Origin: Planctomycetaceae bacterium
GTDB lineage: Bacteria; Planctomycetota; SZUA-567
Assembly (NCBI GenBank): GCA_021201355.1
Contig: JAJQFC010000024.1
Location: forward strand, 206 to 64,205
Reading direction: 5' to 3'
Length of the DNA: 64,000 nt
The position numbers and the translations under genes are program-made. Below the pieces are notes generated by a model, which was not told where the DNA came from, searched no databases, and saw nothing but the letters and a program-made list of their open reading frames with translations. This document shows positions 8,369 to 62,762 of this stretch, piece after piece (positions within the stretch are counted from its first letter, which is position 1; every line of letters starts with the position of its first letter).

Positions 8369-9985
8369 ATGCCAGACGCAGCCGCAAACGGGAATGTGGA
8401 ATCCGGCGGGTCCTCGGACGAGGTCGTGCGGGAACTCACGCAGAAGCAGCAGGACCTCACCGAGGCCATGCAGCGGCTTATCCGTTTCCAACGCCAGACC
8501 CTCGTCCTTAAAAACGCGCCGTCCATCGATTCCGCCCTCGACACGATGGAATCGCTTTTAATCGAAGTTATCGATTTCGCCTACGCCAGCCTCCAGTACC
8601 GGTCGGAAAACGGCATCTTTTCGCCGCTCCGGCAGATTTGCCCGGACGATATCCACCTCGACTATCCCCTTATGGAATGGGTCATGGGCACGCAGGAGGT
8701 GTCTGTCCTGCCGATAGACATCCACATGGAGGACTGCAACCTCCGGTCGCTCCTCTTCCTGCCGTTCGGGTTCCACCACATCATGCTTCTCTGGCTCGAA
8801 CAGGATACCGACGCCTTTACCCAGGAGCAGGAGGCGCTCCTCTCCATCCTGTCCCGGGAGATGGCGTCCGTCCTCGATTCGCACCACTACCGGATCAGGC
8901 TCGAAAAGACCAGGGCGGCAATGTCCGACATTATCGAATCGGTCCCGCTCGGCCTCCTTGCCCTCGATCACTAGGACAAGGTGCAGATGATCAATTCCAC
9001 CGCCGAGATCGCCCTCGACATCCGCCGTCAGGACGCGGTCGGCGCCGACTTCCACGAGGCGCTTCCGGAAAAGGTCGCCGACCTCATAGACAACTTGGAA
9101 AACACCGGCAGCATCGAGGAAGCCGAACTCGCCATCAACAAACCGGGCCGGGACAGCCAGTACCTCGGCCTCACCATCTCGCCGATGCGGAGCGAGGACG
9201 GTTCCAGCAAGTCCGGGCAGGTCGTCGTCTGCCGCGACCTCCAACTGTCCCGGGAAGTCCAGAAGCTCCGCGAACTGGACGCGATGAAAAACGACTTCCT
9301 CTCCCTCGTCACCCACAAACTGCGGACGCCCCTGACGTCCATCATGGCCTATTCGGAAACGCTCCTCATGGACGAGGAAGGCGAGGTTCCCGGGGAGTGG
9401 CGGGAATACATCACCATCATCCATTCCGAAGGCCGCCGCCTCTGCCGCCTCATTGACGACGTCCTCGATCTCACCCGCATGGAAGCGGGCAAGATGTCGT
9501 ACGACTACGAGACGCAGGATCCGAACGAGATCATCGGCGCCGTCGTCATGTCCCTGACGCCGCAACTCGAGGAAAAATGCCACCACCTCGAACTCGATCT
9601 GGACGAAAACGTCGGCGACTGCCGCCTCGCCGTCGACCGGATTACCCAGGTCTTGACGAACATCTTCAGTAACGCCATCAAGTACACCGACGCCGGCGGC
9701 ACCATCGTCATTTCGTCGAAGCGGGCCGAACCGTTCCCGGAATCGTCGACCCCGACTCTCCTCATCACGGTGAAGGACAACGGCATCGGCATTGCGCCGG
9801 AAAATCTGGACCGGGTGTTTTCGAAATTCGAAATGGTGGAATCGGTTAAGCACCACACCTCGGGGACCGGCCTCAGCATGGCCATCTGCCGGCAGATTGT
9901 CGAGGAAGGCCACGGCGGGAAAATCTGGCTCGAAAGCGAACTTGGCCACGGCACCACGGTGAATGTGCAGATTCCGGTGGCATGA
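8369..9985 (+). pseudogene. PAS-type sensor histidine kinase interrupted by one in-frame TAG
   Basis: One continuous frame-2 reading frame, broken only by TAG at 8972-8974 (ORF-track pieces 8369-8974 and 8981-9985). H-box SLVTHKLRTPLTS, N box NAIKYT, G1 DNGIGI and G2 GTGLSM. The stop falls inside the PAS-like start (SVPLGLLALDH*DKVQMINSTAE). Confidence 0.7.
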
Positions 9986-10023
9986 AGCACAACCGCCGAT
10001 GCGCAAACAATGCCGGATTTCAC

Positions 10024-10062
10024 AAAAAAGGCGGCCCGAAGGTTCGGGGCCGCCTTTTTTTT
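10024..10062. terminator. bidirectional intrinsic terminator (histidine kinase / lipA)
   Basis: AAAAAA-GGCGGCCCGAA / TTCGGGGCCGCC-TTTTTTTT between convergent genes. Confidence 0.75.
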
Positions 10063-10136
10063 AAGTATTGTCATATGCTTTACGGGATGGTGGTGCGTAT
10101 GCCGCCTTTCGGCTCCGACCGGCAATCGTCGTGTCT

Positions 10137-16470: not shown

Positions 16471-16561
16471 TTCTTACAGCGCTTTAGTTGCCACGGGTGT
16501 ACGTGTTCTCGGACAGGACCGGCATGTTGCCGATTTGCGTGTCGCCGCGGTCGTTCAGCGG

Positions 16562-16813
16562 TCAGGCGAGCTTCAGCGCCACGGACCGGGGAAGACTGGC
16601 GGTGACGGACTGGCCGTCGACTACCGGAATATTGCCGATATTCGCGTCGCCCCTGTCGTTAAGCGGCCGGGCGAGGGCGAGGGCGGTATCCCGGGACAGA
16701 CCGGCGGTTTCGGGATTGCCGGACAGGGCGGGCGTGGAAACCCCAACGGTGGCGATGAGGGCGGCGGCCATGGCGACCTTGCCGAGACGGGCGATGTGGG
16801 AGGTTCCAGACAT
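16562..16813 (-). CDS. small secreted repeat protein (PLNDRGD-xx-IGN-x-PV repeats); possible TGA readthrough to 16484
   Basis: ATG 16813 is preceded by AAAGGAG with a 7-nt spacer. Signal-peptide-like N-terminus (ARLGKVAMAAALIATVGVSTPALS). The ORF ends at TGA 16562-16564. A second copy of the repeat continues in frame to TAA 16484-16486. Confidence 0.6.
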   Translation of the reverse strand: MSGTSHIARLGKVAMAAALIATVGVSTPALSGNPETAGLSRDTALALARPLNDRGDANIGNIPVVDGQSVTASLPRSVALKLA

Positions 16814-19870: not shown

Positions 19871-21487
19871 CTATACCGCCACGTCTTCGTCGCCGCGGCC
19901 GTGGGTGTAGGTCGGAAGAAGCATCGGGGACGGGGTCGTCGTGTTGATGCCGGCGCCGGTCCGCTCGGTTTCGAACTTCTTGACGTGGTCCAGATTCGCC
20001 TTCCCCGGGGTGACGGACTTGTATTTGGCGCCGGCCTGCTGCCCGGCGTTCCGGCCGAAGACGATGATGTCGAGAAGGGAATTCCCCATCAGCCGGTTCC
20101 GGCCGTGGATGCCGCCGACCGCTTCACCGGCGATGTAGAGATTTTCAATATCGCTCTGCCCGTCCGGGTGGACGCGGATGCCGCCATTCTGGTAATGGAG
20201 CGTCGGGTAGACGAGAATGGGCTTGGTGCGGATGTCCATGTCGTACTTCCCGTACATGCGCATCATGGCGGGAATGCGTTTTTCGATAGTGCCGGCGCCG
20301 TGGATCTCTTCGATCTGCGGGGTGTCGAGCCAGACGCCATAGCCTTCCGGCGTCTTGACGCCGTTCATGCGCTCGTTGCATTCCCGGATAATGCCGGCCG
20401 AGGTGACGTCACGCGTTTCCAGCGGGTGGATAAAGGCAATGCCGTCCTTGTTGACGAGCTGCGCGCCGAGGGAACGGACCTTTTCCGTGACGAGGGCGCC
20501 AAAGATCTGGTTCGGGTAGGCGACGCCGGTCGGGTGGTACTGGAGCGTGTCCTGGTAGAGTAGCCGCGCACCGGCCCGGTAGGCGAGGATAAGCCCGTCC
20601 GCCGTCGCGCCGTAGTGGTTGGACGTGGGGAAGCCCTGATAGTGCATGCGGCCGGCCCCGCCGGTGGCGAGGACGACGACCTTCGCGCGGGCGATAAGGA
20701 TGTCCCCGGTTTCCATATTCATGAGGACGGCGCCGCAGGCGCGGCCCTGGTCGTCCAGGAGGAGTTCTATGGCCGAGGTGAAGTCGACGACCTGGATGCC
20801 CCGGTTGTAGACTTCGTCCCGGAGGGTGCGCATGATTTCGGCGCCGGAGTAATCCTTGGCCGCGTGCATGCGCTTCCGCGAGGTGCCGCCGCCGTGGGTC
20901 GTTATCATGGTGCCGTCGGCGTCCTTGTCGAACATGACGCCGAGTTCGTTGAGCCATTTGACCGCGCCGGGGCCGTCTGAGACAAGCTTCCGGAGGAGTT
21001 CCGGAACGTTGGCGAAATGGCCGCCGCCGAGGGCGTCGATGTAGTGAATGGCCGGCGAGTCGTTCGGCTTGTCCGCCGCCTGGATGCCGCCTTCCGCCAT
21101 CATGGTGTTGGCGTCGCCGAGGCGGAGCTTGGTGACGAGGAGGACGTTGGCGCCGGCCTCGTTCGCCTCGACAGCCGCCGAGGTACCGGAGCCGCCGCCG
21201 CCGATGACGAGGACGTCGACGTCGTACGTCGCAGTATCCGGGTCGATGTCCATGTCGAGGACGCGGCTCCGGCCCTGAAGCAGTTCGGCCAGTTCGAGGG
21301 GGACTTTTTCCCCCTTGTTCGGCCCGATTTTCAGATCGGTGAACATGTCCTGCCGGTAGTCCGGATGGAACTTCGCCAGGAGATTGGTCTTGTCATCCGC
21401 CGAGAGCCGGGCGGGAAGCACGCCCATGCGGCTTTTGCGGGTCGCTTCGACGTTCTTGATCGAGTCCAGTATTTCCTGTGTATACAA
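19871..21487 (-). CDS. soluble succinate dehydrogenase/fumarate reductase-type flavoprotein (FrdA/TfrA-like)
   Basis: DVLVIGGGGSGTSAA FAD motif, QYHPTG, HYQNGGI and GGIHGRNRLMGNSLLD. About 90-aa N-terminal extension. Probable TTG start with an AAAGGGG SD. Confidence 0.75.
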   Translation of the reverse strand: MYTQEILDSIKNVEATRKSRMGVLPARLSADDKTNLLAKFHPDYRQDMFTDLKIGPNKGEKVPLELAELLQGRSRVLDMDIDPDTATYDVDVLVIGGGGSGTSAAVEANEAGANVLLVTKLRLGDANTMMAEGGIQAADKPNDSPAIHYIDALGGGHFANVPELLRKLVSDGPGAVKWLNELGVMFDKDADGTMITTHGGGTSRKRMHAAKDYSGAEIMRTLRDEVYNRGIQVVDFTSAIELLLDDQGRACGAVLMNMETGDILIARAKVVVLATGGAGRMHYQGFPTSNHYGATADGLILAYRAGARLLYQDTLQYHPTGVAYPNQIFGALVTEKVRSLGAQLVNKDGIAFIHPLETRDVTSAGIIRECNERMNGVKTPEGYGVWLDTPQIEEIHGAGTIEKRIPAMMRMYGKYDMDIRTKPILVYPTLHYQNGGIRVHPDGQSDIENLYIAGEAVGGIHGRNRLMGNSLLDIIVFGRNAGQQAGAKYKSVTPGKANLDHVKKFETERTGAGINTTTPSPMLLPTYTHGRGDEDVAV

Positions 21488-22408: not shown

Positions 22409-23257
22409 CTAGTATTCTTCCGGCAGGGCGTCCAACTGATCGAAGCGGAACACCGGGCCGTCGCGGCAGACGTATTTCGATCCGATGTTGCAGCGGCCGC
22501 ATTTGCCGACGCCGCATTTCATCCGGAGTTCCATCGTGGTATAGACCTGGGTGTCGGCAAAGCCCATTTCGCGGAGCGCCGCCAGGACGAACTTGATCAT
22601 GATAGGCGGGCCGCAGACAAGCACCGTCTTCGTCGGCGGGAACGCCAGTTCCTTGACGTAGTTCGGGACAAAGCCGACGTGACCCTTCCAGCTTTCCTCT
22701 TCCCGGTCGACGGTGAGGTGCACCTTGACGTCGTCCTTCCCGTCCCACTCGCCCTTGATTTCGTCGAGGTAGACGAGGTCGGCGGAACTGCGGGAGCCGT
22801 AGACGATGTCGACGGTGCCGTAATTCGACCGGTGGTAGCGGACATAGTTAATGACCGACCGGAGCGGCGCCAGGCCGATGCCGCCGGCGACGAACACGAG
22901 GTCTTTCCCCTTGAGTTCGGTGTCCACCGGAAAACTGTTCCCGTAGGGACCGCGAATCGTCAGGTGCTGGCCAACCTCCATGTCGTGGAGCCAGTCCGTC
23001 AGGCGGCCGCACTTCTTGATGGAGAATTCCATATAGTTTGTGTTCGTGGGGGATGAGGTGATGGAAAACATCGCCTCGCCAACGCCGGGGACCGACAACA
23101 TGGCGCACTGCCCGGGCGCGTGGCTGAAACAGACGCCTTCGCCGCCCGGCAGGGTGACCCGGAACGTCTTGACGTCCGGAGTCTGCTGTTTGATGTCGGT
23201 GACAATCCCGAGGGTCGGAATCAGGGTGTCACGGATGGTATCGCAGCTACAGCTCAT
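22409..23257 (-). CDS. FAD/NAD(P)-binding oxidoreductase with C-terminal 2Fe-2S (AsrB/HydG/FlxA-like)
   Basis: Ferredoxin-reductase-type fold (FVAGGIGLAPL) and C-terminal CGVGKCGRC motif. ATGA overlap with the upstream gene. Confidence 0.75.
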   Translation of the reverse strand: MSCSCDTIRDTLIPTLGIVTDIKQQTPDVKTFRVTLPGGEGVCFSHAPGQCAMLSVPGVGEAMFSITSSPTNTNYMEFSIKKCGRLTDWLHDMEVGQHLTIRGPYGNSFPVDTELKGKDLVFVAGGIGLAPLRSVINYVRYHRSNYGTVDIVYGSRSSADLVYLDEIKGEWDGKDDVKVHLTVDREEESWKGHVGFVPNYVKELAFPPTKTVLVCGPPIMIKFVLAALREMGFADTQVYTTMELRMKCGVGKCGRCNIGSKYVCRDGPVFRFDQLDALPEEY

Positions 23258-24285
23258 GCCTTCGTCTCCATGGCTTTCATGACCCGGACGATGTTCAGGG
23301 CCGAGGGACACTTTTCGACGCAGCGGCCGCAGCCGACGCAACTGTACACCCCGTCGTTGTTCTGCGGGAAATAGACGAGCTTGTGCATGAAGCGCTGGCG
23401 GAAGCGCTGCAACTGCGTCGTCCGCGGGTTGCCGTGGGCCATCAGGGTAAAGTCCGAATACATGCAGGAATCCCAGCAGCGGAAGCGCCGCACGCCGGCC
23501 GCGCCGTCGTCCCGGTCCTGGATGTCGTAGCATTGGCAGGTCGGGCAAACGAAGGTGCAGGTGCCGCAGCCGAGACAGGCTTCGGACAACCGGCTCCAGG
23601 CGTCGAGGCCGAAGATGTCGTCCGTTTGTTCCATCGCGACGACCGGCGGCTTCAGTTCGGTGAACGGCGCCGCATCCCACGCTTTCGTCGCGTCGGCCTT
23701 GACCTGGCCGACTGCCGCGTCGCCGTCCGGCCCGGCGTCCTGGAGGACGGCGCCGACGGCGGCGGTGAGGGCTTCACCTTTTTCGGTGAGCGGTTCCCAA
23801 TACAATGTATCGCCGACCATCCAGGTCGCGACATCGCCGCCCGGCGCCGACGAGTCGATGCCGAAGCTTTGACAAAAACAACTGTCTTCCGGCGCGCCAC
23901 AGGCGAGGGTGACGACGGTGCCGACTTCGCGGCGGGCCGCGTAAAAACTGTCTTTCGGGTCGACGAGGAAAACCCGGTCAAGAACATCCATCCCGGCCGC
24001 GTCGCAGGCGCGCATGGCGAAGACGACAAACGGCGCTTCCGCCGTCGGCGCCGAATTGATGTCGATTTCCTTCCCGTTCATCCGGAAGCGGACGATGTCC
24101 TCGGTCTGGGGAAAGAAAAAGTCCTTGCCGCTCTTGGCGGTCTTACCGGTGAGGGAGACGTTCGCGCCGTCCGACCAGAGGCCGAATTCGACGCGGTTGT
24201 CGTCTTCCCGGGGCAACCAGAGCTGGCGGTCCTTGGCGATTTCCGCGTACAGTTTCGGGAGGTCAGTAACAGGAATTTTCCGCAT
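23254..24285 (-). CDS. 4Fe-4S dicluster protein (AsrA / sulfhydrogenase-beta / FlxB-like)
   Basis: CLGCGTCTFVCPTCQC and CVGCGRCVEKCP. Start MRKIPVTDL overlaps the upstream stop (TAATG). Confidence 0.7.
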   Translation of the reverse strand: MRKIPVTDLPKLYAEIAKDRQLWLPREDDNRVEFGLWSDGANVSLTGKTAKSGKDFFFPQTEDIVRFRMNGKEIDINSAPTAEAPFVVFAMRACDAAGMDVLDRVFLVDPKDSFYAARREVGTVVTLACGAPEDSCFCQSFGIDSSAPGGDVATWMVGDTLYWEPLTEKGEALTAAVGAVLQDAGPDGDAAVGQVKADATKAWDAAPFTELKPPVVAMEQTDDIFGLDAWSRLSEACLGCGTCTFVCPTCQCYDIQDRDDGAAGVRRFRCWDSCMYSDFTLMAHGNPRTTQLQRFRQRFMHKLVYFPQNNDGVYSCVGCGRCVEKCPSALNIVRVMKAMETKA

Positions 24286-25268
24286 TATTGGCCTCCTCCG
24301 GAAGCGACCACTTCCGACGGTTCCGGATCGGTCTCGGTAAATTCGGTGAGGGGAGTCATTCCGAAATCGTCCGTCCCGGCCGCGAACGGGCCGTAGGCGC
24401 GGTTGATGTCCTTGATGAACTTCCGGTTCAGAAGATGCAGGGGAATCCCTTGCGGGCAGGCCCGGCTGCATTCGCCGCAGTCGGTGCAGCGGCCGGCGAC
24501 GTGGAAGGCGCGGATGATGTGGAACATCTTTTCTTCAAACGTCTCCGAATTCGCCTTCCCGGACACCGGGTTCGCCGGATTGTCGAAAACGCATTTCACG
24601 CAGGAACAGACCGGGCAGATATTCCGGCAGGCATTGCAGCGAATGCAGCGGGACAGCTCCTTCTGCCAGAACGCGAACCGTTCGGCCGGGGCCATCGCTT
24701 CAAGTTCCTCGACCTGCTTGAAACGGACCGGGCTTTCACCCTGATCCTTGATGTCGACCAGGAGTTCGTCCTGGATGCGGTGGGTGTTACTTTTACAGGC
24801 GATGCATTTTTCCAGGGCGACGGCGTCGCGGGGCAGAACCTTTTCCCCGTCGGCGGTGTCGAAGACGAATTCGGCGCCGCGCTGCTTCGCGTCCTTCAGG
24901 CCGCAAATGCCGGCCCGGCGGACCTTTTCGGGGTCGAGCATATCGCCCGTCGGGATGCCGAGGACATAGACGGCTTCCCGTTCGAGGCGGTTTTCCCCGA
25001 GCATCTGATTGAGGCTATAGGTGTCGCACGGCTTAAGGAGGGCGAGGACGCGCCCGTCCGCCGCCTTCCGCCCGTTCAGGTAACGGGAGACATTGGCGGC
25101 GCAGAAGCAGTCGTAGACAAAGTCGTTGTCAAGTTCTTCCGCCGTTTCGAAAAACGCCGGCACCCGGTCCCCGGGCATTTCACCGCGCTTCCAGCCCCAG
25201 ACGCCGACAACGGTGCCGTCGGCCAGGAGTGCTTTGGCGCGGTCGATGATTTTTTCTCTCATTCCCAT
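24285..25268 (-). CDS. 4Fe-4S dicluster protein (FlxC-like)
   Basis: CIRCNACRNICPVCSC and CTDCGECSRACP. The start overlaps the mvhD-like stop (TGATG). Confidence 0.65.
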   Translation of the reverse strand: MGMREKIIDRAKALLADGTVVGVWGWKRGEMPGDRVPAFFETAEELDNDFVYDCFCAANVSRYLNGRKAADGRVLALLKPCDTYSLNQMLGENRLEREAVYVLGIPTGDMLDPEKVRRAGICGLKDAKQRGAEFVFDTADGEKVLPRDAVALEKCIACKSNTHRIQDELLVDIKDQGESPVRFKQVEELEAMAPAERFAFWQKELSRCIRCNACRNICPVCSCVKCVFDNPANPVSGKANSETFEEKMFHIIRAFHVAGRCTDCGECSRACPQGIPLHLLNRKFIKDINRAYGPFAAGTDDFGMTPLTEFTETDPEPSEVVASGGGQ

Positions 25269-25711
25269 CAGCGCAGTTCTCCCAGGTTGTTTTTCGGGCC
25301 GAGCTGGGCCACATGACTGCAAAAGTCCCGCATGGTGGCGGCGAACTTGGCGCCTTCGGCGGCGGAGATCCATTCCACCCGGGTCCGGTCGCGTTCGATG
25401 CCGAGGTAGTCGAGCATGCCGAACAGCATGGACATCCGGCGGCGGGCATAGTAATTGCCGGTGGTGTAGTGGCAGTCCCCGGGATGACAGCCGGCGATGA
25501 TGACGCCGTCGGCGCCGCGCTGGAAGGCCCGGAGAACAAACAGCGGGTTGACCCGGCAGGAACAGGGCACCCGGATAATCTTGACGTCGGCCGGGTAATC
25601 CAGCCGGCTGGTGCCGGCCAGGTCGGCCCCGGCGTAACTACACCAGTTGCAGCAAAACGCGACGATGAGCGGCTTGGTAGCCGTGGTCGCGTCGTTTTCA
25701 GTCATCGGCAT
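25268..25711 (-). CDS. MvhD-like (methyl-viologen-reducing hydrogenase delta / FlxD-like) protein
   Basis: FCCNWCSYAGADLAG...IRVPCSCRV...GCHPGDCHY. GGAGGTGG SD. 10-nt overlap with the hdrA stop. Confidence 0.85.
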   Translation of the reverse strand: MPMTENDATTATKPLIVAFCCNWCSYAGADLAGTSRLDYPADVKIIRVPCSCRVNPLFVLRAFQRGADGVIIAGCHPGDCHYTTGNYYARRRMSMLFGMLDYLGIERDRTRVEWISAAEGAKFAATMRDFCSHVAQLGPKNNLGELR

Positions 25712-27699
25712 ATAGCATCCACCTCCGCCAAAATCTGCCGGGTCGAGAAGCCCCAGAGGTCCATCACGCCGGACGGGCAGGTCACGGTGCAGGCGCCGCA
25801 GCCCTGGCAGACCGCTTCGTTGACCTGGGCAACGCGGGTGGAGAGGCGCTTTCCTTCCCGGTGCACTTCCTTGACTTCATAGGTAATCGCCCCGTAGGGA
25901 CACACGTTTTCACAGAGGCCGCAGCCGTTACACATCGGTTCGGCCGGGCTGGCGATACAGGGGTTCGTAATGAGCTTGTCCTTGACGAGGAGGCCAATCA
26001 CCTTCGACGCGGCGGCGCCGGCCTGGGCCACCGTCTCCGGAATGTCCTTCGGGCCCTGGCACAGACCGGACAGGTAGACGCCGGCTGTCGGGCTTTCCAC
26101 CGGACGGAGCTTCGGGTGGGCTTCCGTGAAGAAGTCGTTCGTGTCCATGCTGGCGGTGAGCATCGTCGCCAGGTTCCGGGCGCCCTTTTCCGGTTCGACC
26201 GCCGTCGCCAGGACAACCATATCGGCTTCGATATGGAGCTGTTTGTCGTGGAGGAGATCGGACGCCTGGATGAGGAGCATGTCGCCCTTCTTTTCCACCT
26301 GGCCGACCATGCCCTTGATGTAATGGACATTGTACTGCTCGATAGCGCGGCGCTGGAACTCGTCGAAAGCCTTGCCGGGCGTCCGGACGTCGATGTAGAA
26401 AACATAGACTTCGGAATCCGGATACTTCTCGCGGACGAGCATGGCGTGCTTGGCCGTGTACATGCAGCAGATTTTCGAACAATAGGTCTTTTCGCATTCG
26501 CCGGAACCGCGGGAGCCGACGCACTGGACAAAGACGATACGCTTCGGTTCCTTGTGATCGCTCGGCCGGACGAGGTGTCCGCCGGTCGGCCCGGCGGCGT
26601 TGCAGAGCCGCTCGAACTCGAGGGAGGTGATGACGTCCGGGTATTCTTCGTAGCGGAATTCCCCGTACGGTTCCGGACTCACCGTGTCGAAGCCGGTGGC
26701 GACGACGATAGCGCCGTAGCTTTCTTCGAGGATGGTGTCTTCCTGGTCGTAGTGGACGGCCTTCGAAGGACAAATCTTTTCGCAGACGCCGCACTTCCCG
26801 GTCTGGAACTTGATGCAGTTTTCCCGGTCGATCACGGGCACGTTCGGGATGGCCTGGGCGAACGGGATGTAAATCGCCGACCGGTTCCGTAGGCCCTGGT
26901 CGAACTCGGACTTCGCCTTCTTCGCCGGGCACTTTGCCATGCAGTCGCCGCAGCCGGTACAGGCGACTTCGTCGACGCACCGGGCTTTTTTCCGGATCTT
27001 CACCTTGAAGTCGCCGACGAACCCGGACACCGATTCAACTTCCGAATAGGTGTGGATGGTGATGTTTTCGTGCTGGGCCGCCTCGACCATCTTCGGCGTC
27101 AGGATGCAGGCGGCGCAGTCGAGGGTCGGAAAGGTCTTGTCGAGCTGGGCCATCTTGCCGCCGATGGTCGGTTTCCGTTCGACAATGTCGACCTTGAAGC
27201 CGGCGTCGGCGACATCGAGCGCCGTCTGGATGCCGGCGATGCCGCCGCCGATGACGAGGGCGCGCTTGACGACGCGGCTTTCGCCGGCGGTCAGGGGGGT
27301 GTTCAGCATCACCTTGGCGATGGCGGTGCGGCCGAGGATGATGGCCTTCTCCGTCGCGTCCTGCTTATTCCGGTGAATCCAGGAGCACTGCTCACGGATG
27401 TTCGCGACCTCGACCATAAACGGGTTGAGGCCGGCGGCGGCCGCCGCCTTCCGGAACGTCGGTTCGTGCATCCGGGGGGAACAGGCCGCGACGACGATGC
27501 CGGTGAGGGCGTGGTCCTTAATGGCGGAACGGATGGCGCCCTGCCCGCCTTCGGAACACATATATTGATAGTCCATGGCGAAGGCAACGCCGGGTTCTTT
27601 CCCAAGCGTCTCCGCCACCTTTTTCACGTCGACGGTCGCGGCGATGTTCGAACCGCACCAGCAGACGAATACACCAATTCTATGCAAGGCAATCTCCAA
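25702..27699 (-). CDS. hdrA: heterodisulfide reductase subunit A-like flavoprotein
   Basis: N-terminal VFVCWCGSNIA domain, FAD motif VIGGGIAGIQTA and four CxxCxxCxxxCP motifs. 665 aa. An alternative TTG start at 27687 has a GGAG SD. Confidence 0.9.
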   Translation of the reverse strand: MEIALHRIGVFVCWCGSNIAATVDVKKVAETLGKEPGVAFAMDYQYMCSEGGQGAIRSAIKDHALTGIVVAACSPRMHEPTFRKAAAAAGLNPFMVEVANIREQCSWIHRNKQDATEKAIILGRTAIAKVMLNTPLTAGESRVVKRALVIGGGIAGIQTALDVADAGFKVDIVERKPTIGGKMAQLDKTFPTLDCAACILTPKMVEAAQHENITIHTYSEVESVSGFVGDFKVKIRKKARCVDEVACTGCGDCMAKCPAKKAKSEFDQGLRNRSAIYIPFAQAIPNVPVIDRENCIKFQTGKCGVCEKICPSKAVHYDQEDTILEESYGAIVVATGFDTVSPEPYGEFRYEEYPDVITSLEFERLCNAAGPTGGHLVRPSDHKEPKRIVFVQCVGSRGSGECEKTYCSKICCMYTAKHAMLVREKYPDSEVYVFYIDVRTPGKAFDEFQRRAIEQYNVHYIKGMVGQVEKKGDMLLIQASDLLHDKQLHIEADMVVLATAVEPEKGARNLATMLTASMDTNDFFTEAHPKLRPVESPTAGVYLSGLCQGPKDIPETVAQAGAAASKVIGLLVKDKLITNPCIASPAEPMCNGCGLCENVCPYGAITYEVKEVHREGKRLSTRVAQVNEAVCQGCGACTVTCPSGVMDLWGFSTRQILAEVDAICR

Positions 27700-27766
27700 A
27701 GGATGAAGTTGTGCAAATGTCTTCGGTCAATTGTGGTTTATTGTGATGGCGCCGTGGCACCTTTGA

Positions 27767-41165: not shown

Positions 41166-41197
41166 TCCTCACCGTATCCACCACCCGCAGGCAGTTC

Positions 41198-41513: not shown

Positions 41514-41545
41514 GCAAACAAAAAACCAGGCCGCAACCGGCCTGG
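41514..41545 (-). terminator. intrinsic terminator after the zinc-finger protein gene
   Basis: Stem CCAGGCCG / CGGCCTGG with loop CAAC, followed on the minus strand by TTTTTTGTTT. Confidence 0.65.
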
Positions 41546-41589
41546 CTTCAATTCGTGTACGTTGCATCAAATAATGCGCCGTGTCACGC

Positions 41590-42450: not shown

Positions 42451-42559
42451 ATGGTGCGTCTCCACAATGACGGGATAGTAATGAGTAGTCGAAAACGACG
42501 ACCGCCTAACGCGACCGCTTTTTCCTACTATACCAGAAGAAAGGTTGAAATCAACATAT

Positions 42560-44237: not shown

Positions 44238-44241
44238 GCCT

Positions 44242-44733
44242 ATGGCCAAGGCAATACGGCGAACCAAAAAGACCCGGATACGTGACGAGGCCGGACCGGA
44301 ATGGCAACGGTATTTCGACCAGGTGAAATGGCGTCGCGAACGATTGACCAGTCCGAAATACCGGCCGCTGGTTATCTGTCGTTACGAGGTGGATGGGGTC
44401 GAGCGGGTGGTGGCGCGGCCGAAAAGCTTTCCGACGCCGGTAAAAAAAATCGTCGAAAAAGTGGTGAACCTTAAAGCGCTTGGCATTGCAATAAACATTG
44501 AAAGTATACGTGAGGCTTGGACGGCGGTGGTGGGTGAGGAAATCGCCAAGGATACCGGGCTGTATTCCTTCAAGAACGGCATTGTCACCATTGACGTTTA
44601 TTCGCCTACCCTGTTTCAGGAACTACGTGCCTTTTACGCCGACGGCATCCAGAAAGATCTTCGCGACAAATGGCCGCTTTCCGTCCCTTTGGTTGAGGTT
44701 AAATATCGTTTGGCCCGAAAACAGAAGTTATGA
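44242..44733 (+). CDS. DUF721 (DciA-like) protein
   Basis: C-terminal AWTAVVGEEIAKDTGLYSFKNGIVTIDVYSPTLFQELRAF matches the DUF721 pattern. Sits directly after dnaN. Confidence 0.7.
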   Translation: MAKAIRRTKKTRIRDEAGPEWQRYFDQVKWRRERLTSPKYRPLVICRYEVDGVERVVARPKSFPTPVKKIVEKVVNLKALGIAINIESIREAWTAVVGEEIAKDTGLYSFKNGIVTIDVYSPTLFQELRAFYADGIQKDLRDKWPLSVPLVEVKYRLARKQKL

Positions 44734-45860
44734 CCATAGCGACGTCACCAGGATTATATGTACACATCCCGTTCTGTCGGGCCCGGTGCGGCTATTGCAC
44801 CTTTACCAGTAGCGTCTATTCAAAAGAAACCGCCGACCGTTACGTCGCGGCGCTGTGCCGGGAGGTGGCGGCCAAAGACATCGTCCTGCCATCAACCGTC
44901 TTTATCGGCGGCGGCACGCCGACCGCCTTGTCAATGGCGCAACTGGACCGCGTGCTGGCCGTCCTTCCGGAACCCGCCCCCGGCGCCGAATATACCTGCG
45001 AAGTCAATCCGGACACGGCGACGCGGGAAAAGTTGGCGCTCCTCCGGAGCTATGGCGTCAACCGTCTGTCGTTCGGCGTCCAGACATTCTCGCCAGATGG
45101 TTTACGGGTGCTGGGGCGCTGCCACGACAGTCAGACGGCGGCTGAGGCTGTGACTATGGCCCTCGAAATGGGGTTCCCCGCGGTTAACCTTGACCTTATT
45201 CACGGCTGGCCCGGACAAACCGAAGCCTTTCTGCTTTCCGATTTGGAACAGGCAATCGGCTTGGGCGTTCACCACCTCTCGACGTATTCCCTGATTCTGG
45301 ACGAATCGGCATCACGATACGAGTATTTGTCCGGACTGTTAGGCCATGCCGACAGCGATTCCGAGCGGTTCGGGGAATTTTTTCAAACCAGCCACGACTA
45401 TCTTACCAGCCACCAATTCAAGCATTACGAAACAAGCAACTACGCGAGACCGGGTTTTATTTGCCGTCATAATTGGAACATCTGGCGTGGCGGGGAGTAT
45501 TGGGGAATCGGCCTCGCCGCCCACTCGCACCATCAGGGAAGGCGTTATGCGACGACCGGAGATATGACCGCATATCTCGAAAACGCCGGAATGCCGTCAA
45601 ACCTTGAGTCATTTTCGGAAACCCTCGACGACGAGAGGAAAGCGAGGGAGACCGCCGTATTTTGGCTTCGGTTGTATGAGGGAATCGACCTGGCCGAATT
45701 TTCCCACCAGACCGGATTCGACTTCTTTGACCTGTATGCCACTGTGGCACCTCCGCTCCTGGCCAAAGGCTGGCTGGAACATTCCGCCGACCACAGCCAT
45801 ATTCGCGTTCCCGAAAAACTCCAATCGGTATTGGACACCGTTCTGGTTGAACTGATTTAA
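44730..45860 (+). CDS. hemW: radical SAM heme chaperone HemW (HemN-like)
   Basis: LYVHIPFCRARCGYCTF CxxxCxxC motif and the HemN-like fold. ATGA overlap with the upstream gene. Confidence 0.85.
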   Translation: MTIATSPGLYVHIPFCRARCGYCTFTSSVYSKETADRYVAALCREVAAKDIVLPSTVFIGGGTPTALSMAQLDRVLAVLPEPAPGAEYTCEVNPDTATREKLALLRSYGVNRLSFGVQTFSPDGLRVLGRCHDSQTAAEAVTMALEMGFPAVNLDLIHGWPGQTEAFLLSDLEQAIGLGVHHLSTYSLILDESASRYEYLSGLLGHADSDSERFGEFFQTSHDYLTSHQFKHYETSNYARPGFICRHNWNIWRGGEYWGIGLAAHSHHQGRRYATTGDMTAYLENAGMPSNLESFSETLDDERKARETAVFWLRLYEGIDLAEFSHQTGFDFFDLYATVAPPLLAKGWLEHSADHSHIRVPEKLQSVLDTVLVELI

Positions 45861-46131
45861 TTAACACCGTAGTTAATCACGGATTACACGTATCATAAAC
45901 TTCAGATACCCTGCAATCGCGATAAGTATTTTTATACTTATTATTTACAATCCTCTTTAATACCATATAACTGTCTACCCGGCACCTTGACAGCCCATAC
46001 CGACCATGTAGCCGATATTCAGCCGGGTATTACTCCTACATCCTCTCTAAATCTCTACTATGCATATAATTATGCAAAGGGCGATGCCGTATCAGCACGG
46101 CCCTGGATAAACGTTTTTAACGATAATATAG

Positions 46132-47187: not shown

Positions 47188-47730
47188 ATGTCAACGCAAG
47201 CATCGGTACGCATGAACAAGGTGGCCGACAAGGCCGGGACCGAACCCGACGTCGTCGCCGCCGTGCGGAAATGGAAATCGAAACGGGGCAGCCTCATCAT
47301 GGTGCTCCACGAGATCCAGAACGCCCGCGGTTATGTCCCCCGCGACGTCGCGCTGTACCTGTCCCGGGAACTGGACGTCCCCCTGGCGCGGATCTACGAG
47401 GCCCTGACCTTCTACCACTATTTCAAGCTTGAACCGCCCGGCAAGGCCATCATCTCCGTTTGCACCGGCACTGCCTGCTATCTCAAGGGTTCCCAGGCGC
47501 TGGTGGACGAATTCGCCCGGGAGACCGGCGCGCCGGTCGGCGGTTCCACCGAGGACAAGCTATTCCACCTCCAATGCGTCCGCTGTGTCGGCTGCTGCGG
47601 CCTGGCGCCGGTGGCTATCGTCAACGGGAAGACCTACGGCAAATTGACGCCACCCGACATCAAGAAAATCGTCCATGAATGGCGCGAACACTTCGCCGGC
47701 GATGCGCCCGAAGAAAAGACGACGGAATAA
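47188..47730 (+). CDS. NuoE-like 2Fe-2S subunit of a multimeric [FeFe]-hydrogenase (HydC/HndA-like)
   Basis: LHEIQNARGYVP..., CTGTACYLKG and CVRCVGCCGLAP. GGAGG SD. Confidence 0.85.
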   Translation: MSTQASVRMNKVADKAGTEPDVVAAVRKWKSKRGSLIMVLHEIQNARGYVPRDVALYLSRELDVPLARIYEALTFYHYFKLEPPGKAIISVCTGTACYLKGSQALVDEFARETGAPVGGSTEDKLFHLQCVRCVGCCGLAPVAIVNGKTYGKLTPPDIKKIVHEWREHFAGDAPEEKTTE

Positions 47731-48019
47731 AGAACGTTCAATGAACTCCGGAAGCCTTTTCTGAACATGATGTCCGGTCCACGCAGACCGGTTTCAAGAA
47801 AGGCTGTCGAACCAATTTCCGCCACCATCGGCAGGCCTGCAAGTTTTTCTATTTTTGGCAAAGACCGGCGTTCGGCATTTCTTCAAAACGGGCAGGTGTA
47901 CGCAGTACTGCCCGAAAATTGAGAACGCCGTCACCTTTTATAGAAGCCGGTTTATCCGGTTCTAAAAAAGAAAAACCCGCGACCGCACCGATACTGTCCA
48001 CCGCATAGGAAGAACAATC

Positions 48020-49693
48020 ATGCCCAAGGTCGACCTCAAGGAAATTCGCGAAAAGGAACTGGCCAAACAAAAGGCGTTCAAAGCGCGCCTGTTTGTCTGC
48101 GCCTCAACCGGCTGCGTCGCCTCCGGCTGCAAGGAAGTGATGGCCGCCGTCACGGAAGACCTCAAGTCCCACGGCCTCGACAAGGAAGTGCAGATCGTCC
48201 CCACCGGCTGCATGGGCCTGTGCAGCCACGGCCCGCTCATCCGCGCCGAAGTGCCGGGCCAGTAGCCCGTCCTCTACACCGAAATGGACGGCATGCTCGC
48301 CCGCCTCATGGTGGCGGAACACCTGGAACCGGCCATCCGCCGCCCGGAGACGTTCACCGGCGCGCCCGAGTTTTTGAAAGACCACACCCTCAGCCTCGAC
48401 ACGCCGTTCTTCACCGATCAGGTCAAGGTCGTTCTTGCCAATTCCGGCCACATCGTCCCGGAAAGCATAGACGACTACATCGCCGACGGCGGCTACGACG
48501 CCTGGCAGCGCGTCGTCACCTCGATGACGCCGCAGGACGTCATCCGGGAAATCACCGAATCCGGCCTTCGTGGCCGCGGCGGCGGCGGCTTCCCCACCGG
48601 CAAAAAGTGGGAACTCACGGCCCAGGTCCAGAATGAGGAAAAGTTCATCATCTGTAACGGCGACGAAGGCGACCCGGGCGCCTATATGGACCGGTCCATC
48701 CTTGAAGGCAATCCCCACGCCGTCATCGAAGGCATGCTCATCGCCGGCTTCGCCATCGGCGCGACCAGCGGCTGGTTCTACGTTCGGGCCGAATACCCGC
48801 TGGCGGTCGAACGCCTCGACAAGGCCCTGAAAGCGGCCCGCCGCTACAACCTTCTCGGCAAGGACATCCTCGGGACCGGCCGCGATCTCGACCTGGAAAT
48901 CCGCCTCGGCGCCGGCGCTTTTGTCTGCGGCGAAGAAACCGCCCTTATCGCCTCTATCGAAGGCAAGCGCGGTTCCCCGACGCCGCGTCCGCCGTACCCG
49001 TCCGTCAAGGGTCTATGGGGCATGCCGAGCTGTGTGAATAATGTCGAAACGCTTGCCAACGTCCCGACCATCATGAACCGCGGCGGCGCCTGGTTCGCCT
49101 CGATGGGGACGGAAACGTCCAAGGGAACGAAGGTGTTCGCCCTCACCGGCAAGGTCAAACACTCCGGTCTTATCGAGGTGCCGATGGGGATATCGCTGAA
49201 ACGAATTGTCGAATCCATCGGCGGCGGCACGTCGACGGGGAAAAAGATTAAAGCGGTGCAGACCGGCGGCCCGTCCGGCGGCGTCATTCCGGAAAAGGAA
49301 ATGGATCTGCCGGTATGCTACGACCACCTGAAAAAGGTCGGGTCAATCATGGGGTCTGGCGGCATGATCGTCATGGACGAAGACGACGACATGGTCGACA
49401 TCGCCAAGTTCTACCTGGGATTCACGGTTGACGAAAGTTGCGGTAAATGCGCTCCCTGCCGCATCGGCGGCAAACAGCTTCTTCTTCTTCTCGAAAAGAT
49501 CGCCGACGGCAAGGCGGTTGAGGAGGACATCGAGGATTTGAAGCGCCTCGCCGTTTCCATGAAGAAGGCCTCCCTGTGCGGCCTTGGCCAGACCGCGCCG
49601 AACCCGGTGCTGTCGACCCTCAATTTCTTCCTGGACGAATATCAGGCGCGGCTCACCACCAAGGAGGCGTTGGCGGAGAAGGATAAGGCGTAA
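48020..49693 (+). pseudogene. NuoF-like flavoprotein subunit of [FeFe]-hydrogenase (HydB/HndC-like) interrupted by one in-frame TAG
   Basis: Single frame 2 reading frame, broken only by TAG at 48263-48265. The break is inside the N-terminal thioredoxin-like 2Fe-2S domain, after both Cys pairs (CASTGC, CMGLC): ...GPLIRAEVPGQ*PVLYTEMDG... Downstream, GRGGGGFPTGKKW and SCGKCAPCR are intact. ORF-track pieces are 48020-48265 and 48284-49693. No SD precedes ATG 48284. Confidence 0.75.
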
Positions 49694-49840
49694 GGTGTCC
49701 TTGCGAAGTTTTTTCTATTGACCGTTTTTTGAATGAGCAACTTTTTCTAAATAGAAAAATAGACATCGTCCAAACGTAAAATAGAAAACGGACAACCCAA
49801 ACTTTCAGTCATCCCCGAATTCAGAGAAGGACAGTAAACC

Positions 49841-51586
49841 ATGATAACCGCAACCATCAACGGCATCCAGGTGAGCGTCGAACCTGGTACCAGCATATAC
49901 AAGGCCGCGCACCAGGCGCAGGTCAACATCCCCACCCTTTGCTATCACCCGGACCTGGCGCCGACCGCCGCCTGCGGCATCTGCGTCGTCAAGGTGAAGG
50001 GCGCCGCCAACATGGTCCGCGCCTACACGACGCCGGTGGCGCAGGGCATGGAAATCGTCACCCAGGATCCGGAAATCGTCCAGGTCCGCCGCTCGGTTCT
50101 CGAGATGATCCTGTCGAACCACCCGAACGAATGCCTCACCTGCCTCCGCTCCGGCGAGTGCGAACTGCAAAACCTCGCCCGCGACTTCGGCATCTACAAT
50201 TCGAAGTTGCCGAAAATCATCACCGAACGGGAAAAGGACGCCTCAACCAAGTCCATCGTCCTCGACTCCCGGAAGTGCATTCGCTGCGGCCGCTGCACCC
50301 AGGTCTGCCAGGAAATGCAGAACGTCTGGGCCCTGTCCATCGAACACCGCGGCCTCGACGCCGTCGTCCAGCCGGCCGGCGACATCGAACTGGCGGAAAA
50401 TCCCTGCGTCCGCTGCGGCCAGTGTTCGGCCCACTGCCCGGTCGGCGCCATTTACGAATACGACGAAACCGAACTGGTGCGGAAAGCGCTTATGGATCCG
50501 GAAATGCACTGCATTGTGCAAATCGCTCCGGCGGTCCGCGTCTCCATCGGCGAATCGTTCGGGTTCGCGCCGGGTAAGAACCTTACCGGCAAACTCTACA
50601 CCGCCCTCCGCCGCATGGGCTTCGACCAGGTGTTCGACACCAACTTCGGCGCCGACGTCACCATCATGGAAGAGGCGTCGGAACTGGTCGAGCGGATAAA
50701 GTCCGGCAAGGGGGCGATTCCCCTCATCACCACCTGCTGTCCGTCGTGGGTCGACTTTATGGAGAAATTCGACGCCGACATGATTGAGTATTTCTCGAGC
50801 TGCAAGTCGCCGCAGGCCATTGTCGGCGCGCTGTCGAAGAGTTATTACGCCGAAAAGGCGGGGATACCGGTCGACAAGATCTTCATGGTGTCCATAATGC
50901 CCTGTACGGCGAAGAAGTTTGAAATCGTTCGGGCCAAGGAAATGTTCTCGTCCGGCCACCAGGACATTGACGTCTCCCTGACGACGCGGGAACTGTCCCG
51001 CATGCTGAACCAGGCCGGCATCGAATTCGCCTCCCTCCCGGACGGCCAGGCCGATTCGCCGCTCGGGCAGTACACCGGCGCCGCCACCATCTTCGGCGAG
51101 ACCGGTGGCGTGATGGAGGCGGCGCTCCGCACCGCCTACCACATGATTACCGGTAAGGAACTTGACCAACTTGAATTCGAGTCCATCCACACCATGGACG
51201 GCATCAAAGAACTCGCCATCGACATCGACGGCCTGAACCTCCGCATCGCCGTCGCCCACGGCCTCCGGCATGTGGAAGAGGTTATTGAACGCGTCCGAAC
51301 CGCCTTGGAAAAAGGCGAAGAAGTGCCGTGGCACTTTATTGAAGTGATAGCCTGTCCCGGCGGCTGCGTCGGCGGCGGCGGCCAGTTCTGGGGTGTCAAC
51401 GACGGCATCCGGAAGATGCGGGCGAAAGGCCTCAGTGAAGACGATCGCGGCAGCGCCCTCCGGCGGAGCCATGAAAATCCGGATGTCAAAAAACTGTACG
51501 AAGAGTTCATCGGCGCGCCCCTCAGCGAGAAGGCGCACAAATTATTCCACACCCATTACCAGCCGCGCAGCCAGTACCGGCGGTAA
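49841..51586 (+). CDS. hydA: [FeFe]-hydrogenase catalytic subunit
   Basis: N-terminal 2Fe-2S and 4Fe-4S domains. H-cluster motifs TTCCPSWV, MPCTAKKFE and EVIACPGGCVGGGGQ. Confidence 0.95.
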   Translation: MITATINGIQVSVEPGTSIYKAAHQAQVNIPTLCYHPDLAPTAACGICVVKVKGAANMVRAYTTPVAQGMEIVTQDPEIVQVRRSVLEMILSNHPNECLTCLRSGECELQNLARDFGIYNSKLPKIITEREKDASTKSIVLDSRKCIRCGRCTQVCQEMQNVWALSIEHRGLDAVVQPAGDIELAENPCVRCGQCSAHCPVGAIYEYDETELVRKALMDPEMHCIVQIAPAVRVSIGESFGFAPGKNLTGKLYTALRRMGFDQVFDTNFGADVTIMEEASELVERIKSGKGAIPLITTCCPSWVDFMEKFDADMIEYFSSCKSPQAIVGALSKSYYAEKAGIPVDKIFMVSIMPCTAKKFEIVRAKEMFSSGHQDIDVSLTTRELSRMLNQAGIEFASLPDGQADSPLGQYTGAATIFGETGGVMEAALRTAYHMITGKELDQLEFESIHTMDGIKELAIDIDGLNLRIAVAHGLRHVEEVIERVRTALEKGEEVPWHFIEVIACPGGCVGGGGQFWGVNDGIRKMRAKGLSEDDRGSALRRSHENPDVKKLYEEFIGAPLSEKAHKLFHTHYQPRSQYRR

Positions 51587-59608: not shown

Positions 59609-59781
59609 ACTCCTCTCATTCTTTCGGACGTGGCAAGAGAAAGGCCGCATCGGCAAAAATCGGGCACAACGCGCCCGGCGCTGAAGCGGAAACGCTCCGG
59701 AGCGTGGCGCGGCGGTTGAAATACGGTCGTCATTCGCGACCGCGTCATTAAGGGGATCGGGGGTGGACGTGGGTCACTCTC

Positions 59782-61317
59782 TCATGGTGCGACCTGGGCG
59801 CAGGACTCCGGGTCGACGGCGGTGCCGGTGGTGTATTTCATCACGTCGCCCTCGGTGAGTCCTTCCGGGTTGTCGAAGCATTTTGTGATGCGGCCTTCGT
59901 GCATAACGTAGATGCGGTCGGCCACGCCGAGCGTTTCCGGGAGTTCCGACGACACCATGATCACGCCCTTCCCTTCCTGCTTGAGGCGGTTCATGATTTT
60001 GTAGATCTCCACCTTGGCGCCGACGTCGATGCCCCGCGTCGGTTCGTCGAAGATGACGATGTCCGAGTCGGAATTGAGCCACTTGGCGATAACGACCTTC
60101 TGCTGGTTGCCGCCGGACAGGTTTTTCACCTTCTGGTCGAGGGACGGGGTCTTGATGCGCATCGAGTCGGAGAGGCTGGTGCAGATGCGCCGTTCGCTGG
60201 CCCGGCTGATGCCGAAGCCGGTCATGACGTTGTTCAGGTTGGCGAGGACGATGTTTTCCTTGACGGAGAACGAGAGGATGAGGCCCTGGTTTTTCCGATC
60301 TTCCGTGAGGAGGGCGAGGCCCTGGTTTTTGGCGTCTTCGCAGCTCTTGATGGTGGTCGGAATGCCTTTAATGAGGATTTCGCCGGAGTCGTACGGATCG
60401 GCGCCGAAAATGGCCCGCATCGTCTCCGTCCGCCCGGAGCCCATCAGCCCGTAGAACCCGACGATTTCGCCGTGACGGACGTGGAAGGAAATGTCCCGGA
60501 GGAGGTTTCCCTGGTTCAGGTGGCGGACCTCGAGGATGTTTTCTCCCGGCTCGCAATGAACTTTCGGATACTGTTCGGACAGGTCGCGGCCGACCATGAG
60601 CTTGATGAGAGTGTCGACGGTGGCGCCTTTGGCGTCGACCGTCTCGATATACTTCCCGTCCCGGAAGACGGTGATGCGGTCGCCGATTTTGAGGATTTCC
60701 TCCAGCCGGTGGGAAATGTAGACAATCGCCACCTTTTTGGCCTTCAATTGGGCGATGATGGCGAAGAGACTGTCCACTTCCTTTTCCGTCAGGGCCGAGG
60801 TCGGTTCGTCCATGATGATGATGTCGGAATCGAAGGAGATGGCCTTGGCGATTTCCACCATCTGCATCTGACCGACCGAAAGGGTGGAGACGAGGGCGCG
60901 CTCGGAAATGTCCGAATTGATGGAGTCGAGGAGGCGCCGGGCGTCGGCGAACATCCTGTTCCAGTCGATGCCGCCGAAGGCGGTGACGGGTTGGCGGCCG
61001 AGGAACATGTTTTCGGCGACGGTCAGGTTCTTGAGGAGGTTCATTTCCTGAAAAATGATGCTGACGCCGCGCTCGCGCTGTTCGAGAACGCTTCTGGCGA
61101 CGATGGCTTCGCCCTTGTAGACGATGCTGCCGGAATACCTGGTATTGACGCCGGCAAGGACTTTCATGATGGTCGATTTTCCGGCGCCGTTTTCGCCGAG
61201 GAGGACATGGACCTCGCCCGGATAGGCGTCGAAATGGACCCGGTCCAGGGCAAGTACGCCCGAGAACTCGACGGTTATGTCGTCCATGCGGACGATGGGT
61301 ACTGGCTGGGCAGTCAC
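59782..61317 (-). CDS. sugar ABC transporter ATP-binding protein (duplicated ATPase, RbsA-type)
   Basis: Two nucleotide-binding domains (GENGAGKST and GLMGSGRTE Walker A; LSVGQMQ and LSGGNQQ signatures). GTG 61317 with a GGGAGGG SD is preferred over ATG 61377. Confidence 0.9.
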   Translation of the reverse strand: MTAQPVPIVRMDDITVEFSGVLALDRVHFDAYPGEVHVLLGENGAGKSTIMKVLAGVNTRYSGSIVYKGEAIVARSVLEQRERGVSIIFQEMNLLKNLTVAENMFLGRQPVTAFGGIDWNRMFADARRLLDSINSDISERALVSTLSVGQMQMVEIAKAISFDSDIIIMDEPTSALTEKEVDSLFAIIAQLKAKKVAIVYISHRLEEILKIGDRITVFRDGKYIETVDAKGATVDTLIKLMVGRDLSEQYPKVHCEPGENILEVRHLNQGNLLRDISFHVRHGEIVGFYGLMGSGRTETMRAIFGADPYDSGEILIKGIPTTIKSCEDAKNQGLALLTEDRKNQGLILSFSVKENIVLANLNNVMTGFGISRASERRICTSLSDSMRIKTPSLDQKVKNLSGGNQQKVVIAKWLNSDSDIVIFDEPTRGIDVGAKVEIYKIMNRLKQEGKGVIMVSSELPETLGVADRIYVMHEGRITKCFDNPEGLTEGDVMKYTTGTAVDPESCAQVAP

Positions 61318-61715
61318 GAATCCCTCCCATTCAACAGGGCACGGTACGCCGTGCTGGAATTCAGATAGACTGGGCACGCGCCCAATACGAACGAAAAAAA
61401 CATCCCGCCGAAGCGAGGTTCCGCTATTTTAGGGGTCATGGCTGCAAAAAACAGGCAAAGGAAGCGGCGAAGACGACGCCGCAGCACGCGTGAGGGAAGA
61501 AAGCACGGACGGTGTACGCGCCTAGTTATGTGGTTGTAACGACACTATAACGCACCAAAACGCGGTTGTCAACTCCAATGTTTGGAAAAACAGCGTGATG
61601 GCGATACGGAGCATCTGTTACGTTGGCGGAACATGTTGAAAGATATATGGATAACTGACTATAAATCCTTTGTGAAAATATTGTGTACGCGCCCAGTTAA
61701 TCGGGAGAGCGAAGG

Positions 61716-62762
61716 CTATAGGTCGATGTTTTCCGCGCAGGCGATATGTATCCGGGTATAGGCGATCTCATTGTCCGGCTTCCTGCCGCCCATGAGAAAA
61801 TTGGTCAGCACCGTCACCGGCAGCGAGCCCTGGAGATAGAGGTTCTGTTCAATAACGAAGTCGACCACCCGTTCCCGCAGAAGCCGGGCCGTCGTCTCGG
61901 ACACATCGTGGCAGACGACCCGCACCCGTCCGGCCCGGCCGCAGCGGCGAAGCGCTTCGGCGCAGCCGGGGACGCTTTCGTTGGCCATATAGATGGCGTC
62001 GGCGGCCGGGTGGTCGGCGAGGTAGCGGCCCACCCGTTCCAGCGTCACGTCGTAGTCGTTGTAACATTCGATAACCGTATCCGCCTCCGGGTCGCGGCCC
62101 AGTTCGGCCATGCGCTGGCAGAAACCTTCGACCCGGCGCCGGTGACCGTCGTATTCGCGGTTGCCGCAGGCGATCAGTATGGGCGAGGTCGCCGGCACCA
62201 GTTTGGCCATGATTTCCGCCGCGATCCGACCGCTTCGCCGGTCGTCCTGTCCGACAAAGCACATGCGGCCGCTGTCCGGAATGTCCGAGTTGAATGTCAC
62301 GACAGGGATCCCGTCCCGGACGAGGGCGAGGAGCCGGTTCCGGACCGGTTCGCTGTTACGGGCGCAGATGGCCAAGCCGCGAGCGCCGGCGGCGATGGCA
62401 TCGTCGACGGCTTCGACATATTCTTCGGGAAGGTCGGTGGCGCAGTGGGTGACGATGACGTCCATGCCGAAATCGGCCAGCTCGGCCCTGGCGTTTTCGA
62501 GGCCCCGGTCCACCTCTCAGCCAAACGAACCGGACCAGACCGGCATCACCACGGCTATCTTCATGCCCTTGTTTTTCAGGGCCAGGGCCCGGGCGGCCCG
62601 GTCCGGCGTGTAGTCGAGATCCCGCAACGCCGCCTCGACCCGCCGGCGCTTTTCCGGATTGACATTGGGCCGGCCGTGCAAGACCCGGTCGACAACGCCG
62701 CGGGACACCCCGGCATAGGCGGCTATTATTTTAATAGTCGGTTTCACGATTTGTTTTTCCAA
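61716..62762 (-). pseudogene. LacI-family transcriptional regulator interrupted by one in-frame TGA
   Basis: Single frame, broken only by TGA at 62517-62519 (...IAVVMPVWSGSFG*EVDRGLENARAEL...). N-terminal HTH (TIKIIAAYAGVSRGVVDRVLHG) and a sugar-binding-fold C-terminal part. ORF-track pieces are 62517-62762 and 61716-62513. Confidence 0.7.

Follow-up and report, generated by a model that had tools for sequence, protein, structure and literature searches.

Among young mutations in bacteria, G:C>A:T transitions dominate (Hershberg & Petrov, 2010; PMC2936535). In anaerobically grown Lactobacillus acidophilus lacking mismatch repair, the ratio of transitions to transversions is 30, and A:T>G:C changes are only slightly less frequent than G:C>A:T changes (PMC12691593). 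We analyzed a stretch of 64,000 nucleotides (the window) that is part of a 64,630-bp contig (JAJQFC010000024.1) of a metagenome-assembled genome (MAG) listed at NCBI as Planctomycetaceae and built from sequencing run SRR15221351. Five of its approximately 55 genes (9%), encoding a histidine kinase, a small repeat protein, FtsH, a NuoF/HydB-like hydrogenase subunit and a LacI-family regulator, are each interrupted by an in-frame stop codon within an otherwise continuous coding frame. Judged from comparison with closely related genomes, the five premature stops are real, and each is one point mutation private to one strain. They are probably recent loss-of-function mutations of a single clonal lineage within an uncultured species of Planctomycetota that is probably anaerobic, and the tail of a larger set of G:C>A:T changes that selection left essentially unfiltered.

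The stops were located by a six-frame scan weighted by GC content at third codon positions (GC3), followed by translation, and the domain content and identities of the interrupted genes were confirmed with Pfam. Conspecific contigs were first reached via an exact protein match of an MvhD-like gene. The conspecific genomes are 99.6-99.8% identical to the window. The main comparator, GCA_965299525.1, covers 63,808/64,000 window bases in five loci at ~99.7% identity, and further conspecific pieces were found in GCA_020860405.1, GCA_020860485.1, SRR15219679 and several DRR8457xx runs. Gene calls for counting mutations were transferred from conspecific loci onto the window. Changes were polarized using a sister species, GCA_965328725.1, as the outgroup (aligned blocks are 78-93% identical).

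All five stops lie where a preliminary description of the window, which had reported single in-frame stops in roughly 9% of its genes, had placed them. In the histidine kinase (PAS-HisKA-HATPase, 538 aa; 8369-9985, plus strand), CAG (Q202) is replaced by TAG at 8972-8974, following a CAC codon and early in the PAS domain (residues 185-290). Three conspecific loci have CAG at this site, and the locus that has TAG derives from the same run as the window. The repeat protein (109 aa; 16484-16813, minus strand) has no Pfam match. Its CGA codon (R84) is TGA in the window (16562-16564; preceding codon GCC), where the internal repeat LARPLNDRGD has the counterpart LA*PLNDRGD, the asterisk being the stop; three conspecific loci encode CGA, and the sister species CGT. 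FtsH (650 aa; 33413-35365, minus strand) is interrupted by TAG at 34976-34978, replacing TGG (W130) after a CAA codon, just past the second transmembrane helix and ahead of the AAA and M41 domains. Tryptophan is present in three conspecific proteins, and the DNA of two conspecific loci has C at 34977, where the window has T.

The NuoF/HydB-like subunit (557 aa; 48020-49693, plus strand) has TAG at 48263-48265 in place of CAG (Q82), preceded by another CAG. The stop lies between the N-terminal 2Fe-2S thioredoxin-like domain and the FMN, SLBB and 4Fe-4S domains; conspecific DNA has C at 48263 and the conspecific protein has glutamine. The LacI-family regulator (343-aa gene model; 61716-62747, minus strand) carries TGA at 62517-62519 instead of TGG (W77; preceding codon GGC), which parts the helix-turn-helix (residues 4-49) from the sugar-binding domain (64-320). 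Three conspecific proteins have tryptophan here, and at 62517 the conspecific DNA reads C against T in the window. A LacI protein of a different species (locus L018, 89% amino-acid identity) has glutamine at this position, whereas the conspecific proteins have tryptophan. For both FtsH and LacI, a single transition within the stop codon separates conspecific DNA from the window. Each of the five stops corresponds to a single G:C>A:T transition, on one strand or the other, and all are absent from every other conspecific assembly covering those sites. The preliminary description had offered three unranked candidate explanations, and its interpretation is partly supported: the first, a burst of transitions from CAG to TAG, CGA to TGA and TGG to TAG or TGA, names exactly the ancestral codons found in the conspecific genomes.

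The stops belong to a strongly skewed spectrum. There are 209 substitutions between the window and GCA_965299525.1, comprising 200 transitions and 9 transversions. Polarized changes on the window branch are 48 G:C>A:T, 5 A:T>G:C and 2 transversions; those on the comparator branch are 41 G:C>A:T, 0 A:T>G:C and 3 transversions. Overall, 89/99 polarized changes are G:C>A:T, with a per-site AT bias of ~12. Only 4 indels separate the two strains (sites 6828, 17112, 32643 and 41232), all of a single base and all within homopolymers (A9, T9, T8 and T6). With substitutions outnumbering indels by ~50:1, the earlier argument that ordinary decay would have mixed frameshifts into the same genes carries little weight. 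Between the sister species, the same genes have a transition to transversion ratio of 1595:1241 (1.3) and a ratio of non-synonymous to synonymous substitution rates (dN/dS) of 0.07; the difference from the within-species transition to transversion ratio is highly significant (Fisher P = 4e-39). Thus, the recent changes reflect a separate, unfiltered regime.

On both branches alike, a purine is preferred at the base following the mutated C, and beyond this we found no motif shared by the five sites and the 130 G:C>A:T changes. T precedes the mutated C in 10/69 cases on the window side (~16 expected) and 14/61 on the comparator side, which is at or below expectation. The G:C>A:T changes show no strand bias and neither clusters nor strand coordination, as the runs test and spacing match random expectation, and kataegis-like clusters were rejected on the same grounds. 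The mix of stop types (3 TAG, 2 TGA, 0 TAA) is accounted for by codon usage (CAG 408, TGG 165, CAA 76, CGA 42). It had been pointed out that all three TAGs follow a CAN codon. They do (CAC, CAA and CAG; CAN codons are 4.9% of window codons), but this is a post-hoc coincidence, since the preceding codons are unchanged ancestral sequence beside CAG, TGG and CAG. We reject any meaning in this pattern; the TAG of a doubtful sixth case, described below, follows GAA.

If G:C>A:T changes struck these genes at random, the expected shares would be 42.7% synonymous, 54.5% missense and 2.8% nonsense. With all transitions counted as G:C>A:T, the window side has 92 changes: 31 synonymous, 32 missense, 6 nonsense (one of them in a doubtful open reading frame, ORF), 1 start-codon loss and 22 intergenic. 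The 106 changes on the comparator side comprise 35 synonymous, 45 missense, 0 nonsense and 26 intergenic. The balance between non-synonymous and synonymous changes does not depart from neutral on either side (P=0.8 and 0.9), and with both branches pooled, 5-6 nonsense changes were seen where 4.2 are expected (P=0.24-0.40).

We suggest that each stop would have arisen by one G:C>A:T transition at a codon (CAG, CGA or TGG) that such a change can convert to a stop. The stops would then be part of ~92 such transitions per 64 kb (0.14%) that may have gathered on the window lineage essentially unfiltered by selection. In an anaerobe, the source could be cytosine deamination or O6-alkylguanine that escaped repair, weak mismatch repair, or both, because G:C>A:T changes make up nearly the whole spectrum, transversions are few, ±1 indels are confined to homopolymers, and there are no strand-coordinated clusters and no 5'-TC preference. 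The near-exclusive G:C>A:T change without strand-coordinated clusters is as expected for cytosine-deamination or O6-alkylguanine damage. The transition excess and the small number of homopolymer ±1 indels fit a mismatch-repair-deficient signature, but elevation of both transition directions, also part of that signature, was not found. A recent mutator episode or a strong bottleneck may then have fixed the damage. The best reading is of a lineage that was recently hypermutated or relaxed from selection and displays a raw deamination-type spectrum.

Several points weigh against such a lineage history. None of mutS, mutL, ung and ogt lies within the window, and the cause is read from the spectrum alone. 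Classic loss of mismatch repair also raises A:T>G:C changes, and these are rare here (5/99 polarized). If 9% of genes are knocked out, among them the usually essential ftsH and the gene for a hydrogenase subunit, the whole genome would contain hundreds of dead genes, a heavy burden for a viable free-living cell. Nonsense changes on the window branch are in slight, marginal excess (1.9 expected, 5 seen, P=0.047), a count that has to be read with the selection of the window for holding stops in mind. Lastly, the within-species Nei-Gojobori dN/dS is 0.375, so that selection appears absent only under the spectrum-aware expectation. Values of ~0.375 are usual for very close strains.

The process behind the changes looks like a property of the species, because the sister lineage represented by the comparator branch shows the same spectrum, and the window strain is unusually rich in knock-outs. 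It is possible, although we hold this only tentatively, that the whole species is under standing, near-pure G:C>A:T hypermutation, with strains differing mainly by unselected C>T damage and often carrying many freshly killed genes. A regime of this kind might stem from absent uracil, alkyl or mismatch repair or from an endogenous DNA cytosine deaminase, and long-term selection would restore the ordinary pattern between species.

An almost pure G:C>A:T set without any sign of selection, even in ftsH, would also be expected of a technical artefact, namely C>T errors from a deaminated or low-complexity template (a library that was damaged, heavily amplified or of very low coverage). The genes of the living strain would then be intact. 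Apart from the window itself, the stop alleles occur only in assemblies of one run, in which the kinase stop alone was compared, and coverage is low in related MAGs (e.g., 5.6 for L018). However, four Logan contigs, assembled independently from the reads of SRR15221351, match the window at 99.975-100% identity. Run SRR15221319, which may not be a sample independent of SRR15221351, carries 3/3 window-derived alleles in the 2 kb covered. Spectrum and context are the same on the comparator branch, where some derived G:C>A:T alleles are common to separate assemblies of other projects (GCA_0208604xx and the Japanese run DRR845748), from which it follows that the process operates in nature. Random damage varies from molecule to molecule and would presumably not reach the consensus at normal library complexity. 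The like context on both branches and the recurring alleles favor real mutations in a clonal lineage, and we regard an artefact as unlikely. Systematic miscalling at a modified motif, raised in the preliminary description, is contradicted by the lack of a common motif, by the repetition of the covered stretches, including the kinase TAG, in SRR15221351 assemblies and by the alleles shared with SRR15221319. Damage of the DNA by a competitor is a further way to a nearly pure C:G>T:A spectrum. Interbacterial deaminase toxins mutagenize target cells that survive them (PMC7901873), and SsdA-type enzymes are reported to have little dependence on sequence context (PMC12494967). Survival of an attack by a DddA- or SsdA-type DNA cytosine deaminase is nevertheless very unlikely here: there is no enrichment of the 5'-TC context that typifies DddA, strand-coordinated clusters are not seen, and the same spectrum on the sister branch and in alleles common to assemblies points to a standing endogenous process rather than one episode.

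Real mutations need not be unselected. Loss of some of these genes (the LacI repressor, the sensor kinase and the hydrogenase module) could have been favored in the niche of the strain, as regulators are common targets of adaptive loss. The slight nonsense excess on the window branch is in line with this, as is the accumulation of missense changes in the HydA-like gene (6 private missense, 0 synonymous), which would follow once the operon was dead. The excess is gone when the branches are pooled, though, and the window was picked for holding stops. The lesions are scattered over unrelated functions, and an adaptive loss of ftsH is hard to justify, which together make selected loss improbable. 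Nor need the stops inactivate their genes, if TAG and TGA were read through by way of a suppressor tRNA, pyrrolysine, selenocysteine or a leaky context to give full-length proteins. Three of the five stops have C at the +4 position, as had been noted in the preliminary description, and C at +4 is a leaky stop context in E. coli; measured against the 23% of window codons that begin with C, this is not significant. In the kinase, NuoF-like and LacI genes, the stop is followed within 8 codons by a start codon, so that the downstream halves might re-initiate. Yet the conspecific genomes, 99.6-99.8% identical, encode Q, R, W, Q and W with ordinary codons at these sites, and two stop codons and three amino acids are involved. 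All three stop codons also end normal genes (21 TAA, 20 TGA and 13 TAG among 54 in the window). Rfam identified one tRNA in the window. No tRNA with a CUA or UCA anticodon is present there or in 9 related loci, only tRNA-Leu(TAA). Pyrrolysine or selenocysteine recoding and an alternative code are excluded by the conspecific sense codons and the normal use of terminators, and programmed decoding of any kind, the second of the earlier candidates, is scarcely credible.

Other lesions accompany the five stops. The preliminary description held that the interrupted genes have no other lesion. Each does have a single stop, but FtsH also carries a private missense change, G200D (34767, minus strand), beside Walker A, giving LPKD... 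in the window; the glycine is identical in 8 aligned homologues. A flavoprotein (FAD_binding_2, 533 aa; 19871-21472) has lost its start codon to a private G:C>A:T change (ATG to ATA, 21470-21472, minus strand). The start is ATG in conspecifics and in the sister species, and an in-frame TTG 5 codons upstream could substitute. The A9 run at 6820-6828 (plus strand), A8 in three conspecific strains, shifts the frame of a 133-aa hypothetical ORF (6699-7101). The HydA-like [FeFe]-hydrogenase gene (49841-51586, plus strand), which comes immediately after the truncated NuoF/HydB-like gene, holds the window-private missense changes mentioned above, and these may reflect relaxed selection on a dead operon.

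The doubtful sixth stop is a TAG at 32715-32717 (minus strand), where two conspecific assemblies have CAG. It lies in a 236-aa ORF without a Pfam match that is called only in relatives, has low GC3 (0.68) and shows a one-base homopolymer length difference at 32643. The ORF may not be a gene, because a MATE-like remnant shares the region on the plus strand: a weak MatE-like match (33063-33332, E=0.01) lies, like the ORF, within 32329-33410. In place of this window region, the sister species carries a radical-SAM/SPASM gene. Both the region of the MATE-like remnant and that at 62.8-63.6 kb align to a conspecific genome at ~99.6% identity. Thus, any decay that they represent is common to that genome and older than the five stops. 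Two further candidate lesions, at the guaA-lipA junction (11136) and the MarR-CheX junction (17633), were rejected as neighboring genes that share a frame. The start codon called for the glycosyltransferase gene at 2055-2057 (plus strand) reads ATG in GCA_965299525.1 and ACG in the window; there is no outgroup at this site, and the difference is probably a comparator-side C>T change that created ATG. In locus L009 (SRR15219679), an 11-bp insertion at window position 7591 splits an HDOD/HD gene (108 + 172 aa, compared with 290), which indicates that gene-disrupting lesions also occur in other strains or assemblies of the species.

The window encodes an Flx/Hdr-like cluster (22409-28980, minus strand) with an HdrA-like protein, MvhD/FlpD, several Fe-S proteins and a CCG-domain HdrB-like protein, along with a three-gene HydABC-type [FeFe] hydrogenase (47188-51586, plus strand). 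As predicted from gene content, this combination suggests an anaerobic, probably electron-bifurcating metabolism. At 40000-46000, GC content is lower (51-54%, compared with ~60%) and identity to the sister species is only 78%. Genes identified there are dnaN, a DciA-like gene, a HemN-like radical-SAM gene and a hypothetical gene with weak antiterminator-Q and DnaJ zinc-finger matches. Genes for recA and lexA (37.6-40.1 kb) lie just upstream of this stretch.

NCBI lists the halves of FtsH (MCD7895284/85) and the downstream fragments of the NuoF-like protein (MCD7895298) and LacI (MCD7895307) as separate, ordinary coding sequences and not as pseudogenes. Unflagged, such fragments put truncated proteins into databases, and they should be marked as disrupted genes. 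Nor should the lineage be assigned an alternative genetic code. The window displays a raw, near-pure G:C>A:T spectrum in an uncultured, probably anaerobic member of the Planctomycetota, unlike the selected pattern seen between species. A load of this size across the whole genome would be a sign of a natural mutator or a severe bottleneck, both of which would be a known kind of phenomenon.

Stop codon reassignment (pyrrolysine at TAG, selenocysteine at TGA, and genetic codes 4 and 25) resembles the present case in having in-frame TAG or TGA in conserved genes. It differs in that the codons here are not conserved in orthologues and replace Q, R or W, the stops still terminate, and the window and 9 related loci contain no cognate tRNA. 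Early pseudogenes of bottlenecked or host-restricted bacteria are likewise recognizable genes with a single inactivating lesion lacking in close relatives, but the lesions here are mostly nonsense substitutions, with few frameshifts or insertion sequences, and were found in a MAG and not an isolate. Hypermutators without mismatch repair share transitions far above transversions, indels confined to homopolymers and many unselected missense and nonsense changes. Unlike in mismatch-repair-deficient L. acidophilus, A:T>G:C changes are rare in the window species. As in young bacterial polymorphisms, G:C>A:T changes prevail among differences that are recent and under weak selection, although the genome is GC-rich, and older divergence is ordinary after selection. 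The bias here (~90% G:C>A:T, a transition to transversion ratio of ~30 and a per-site AT bias of ~12) is steeper than in the pathogen data sets on such polymorphisms, and the organism is an uncultured Planctomycetota known from a MAG, whereas those data sets concern clonal pathogens. The event is of a known kind: fresh nonsense mutations, from a spectrum biased towards AT and dominated by transitions, in a lineage that is hypermutating or under weak selection.

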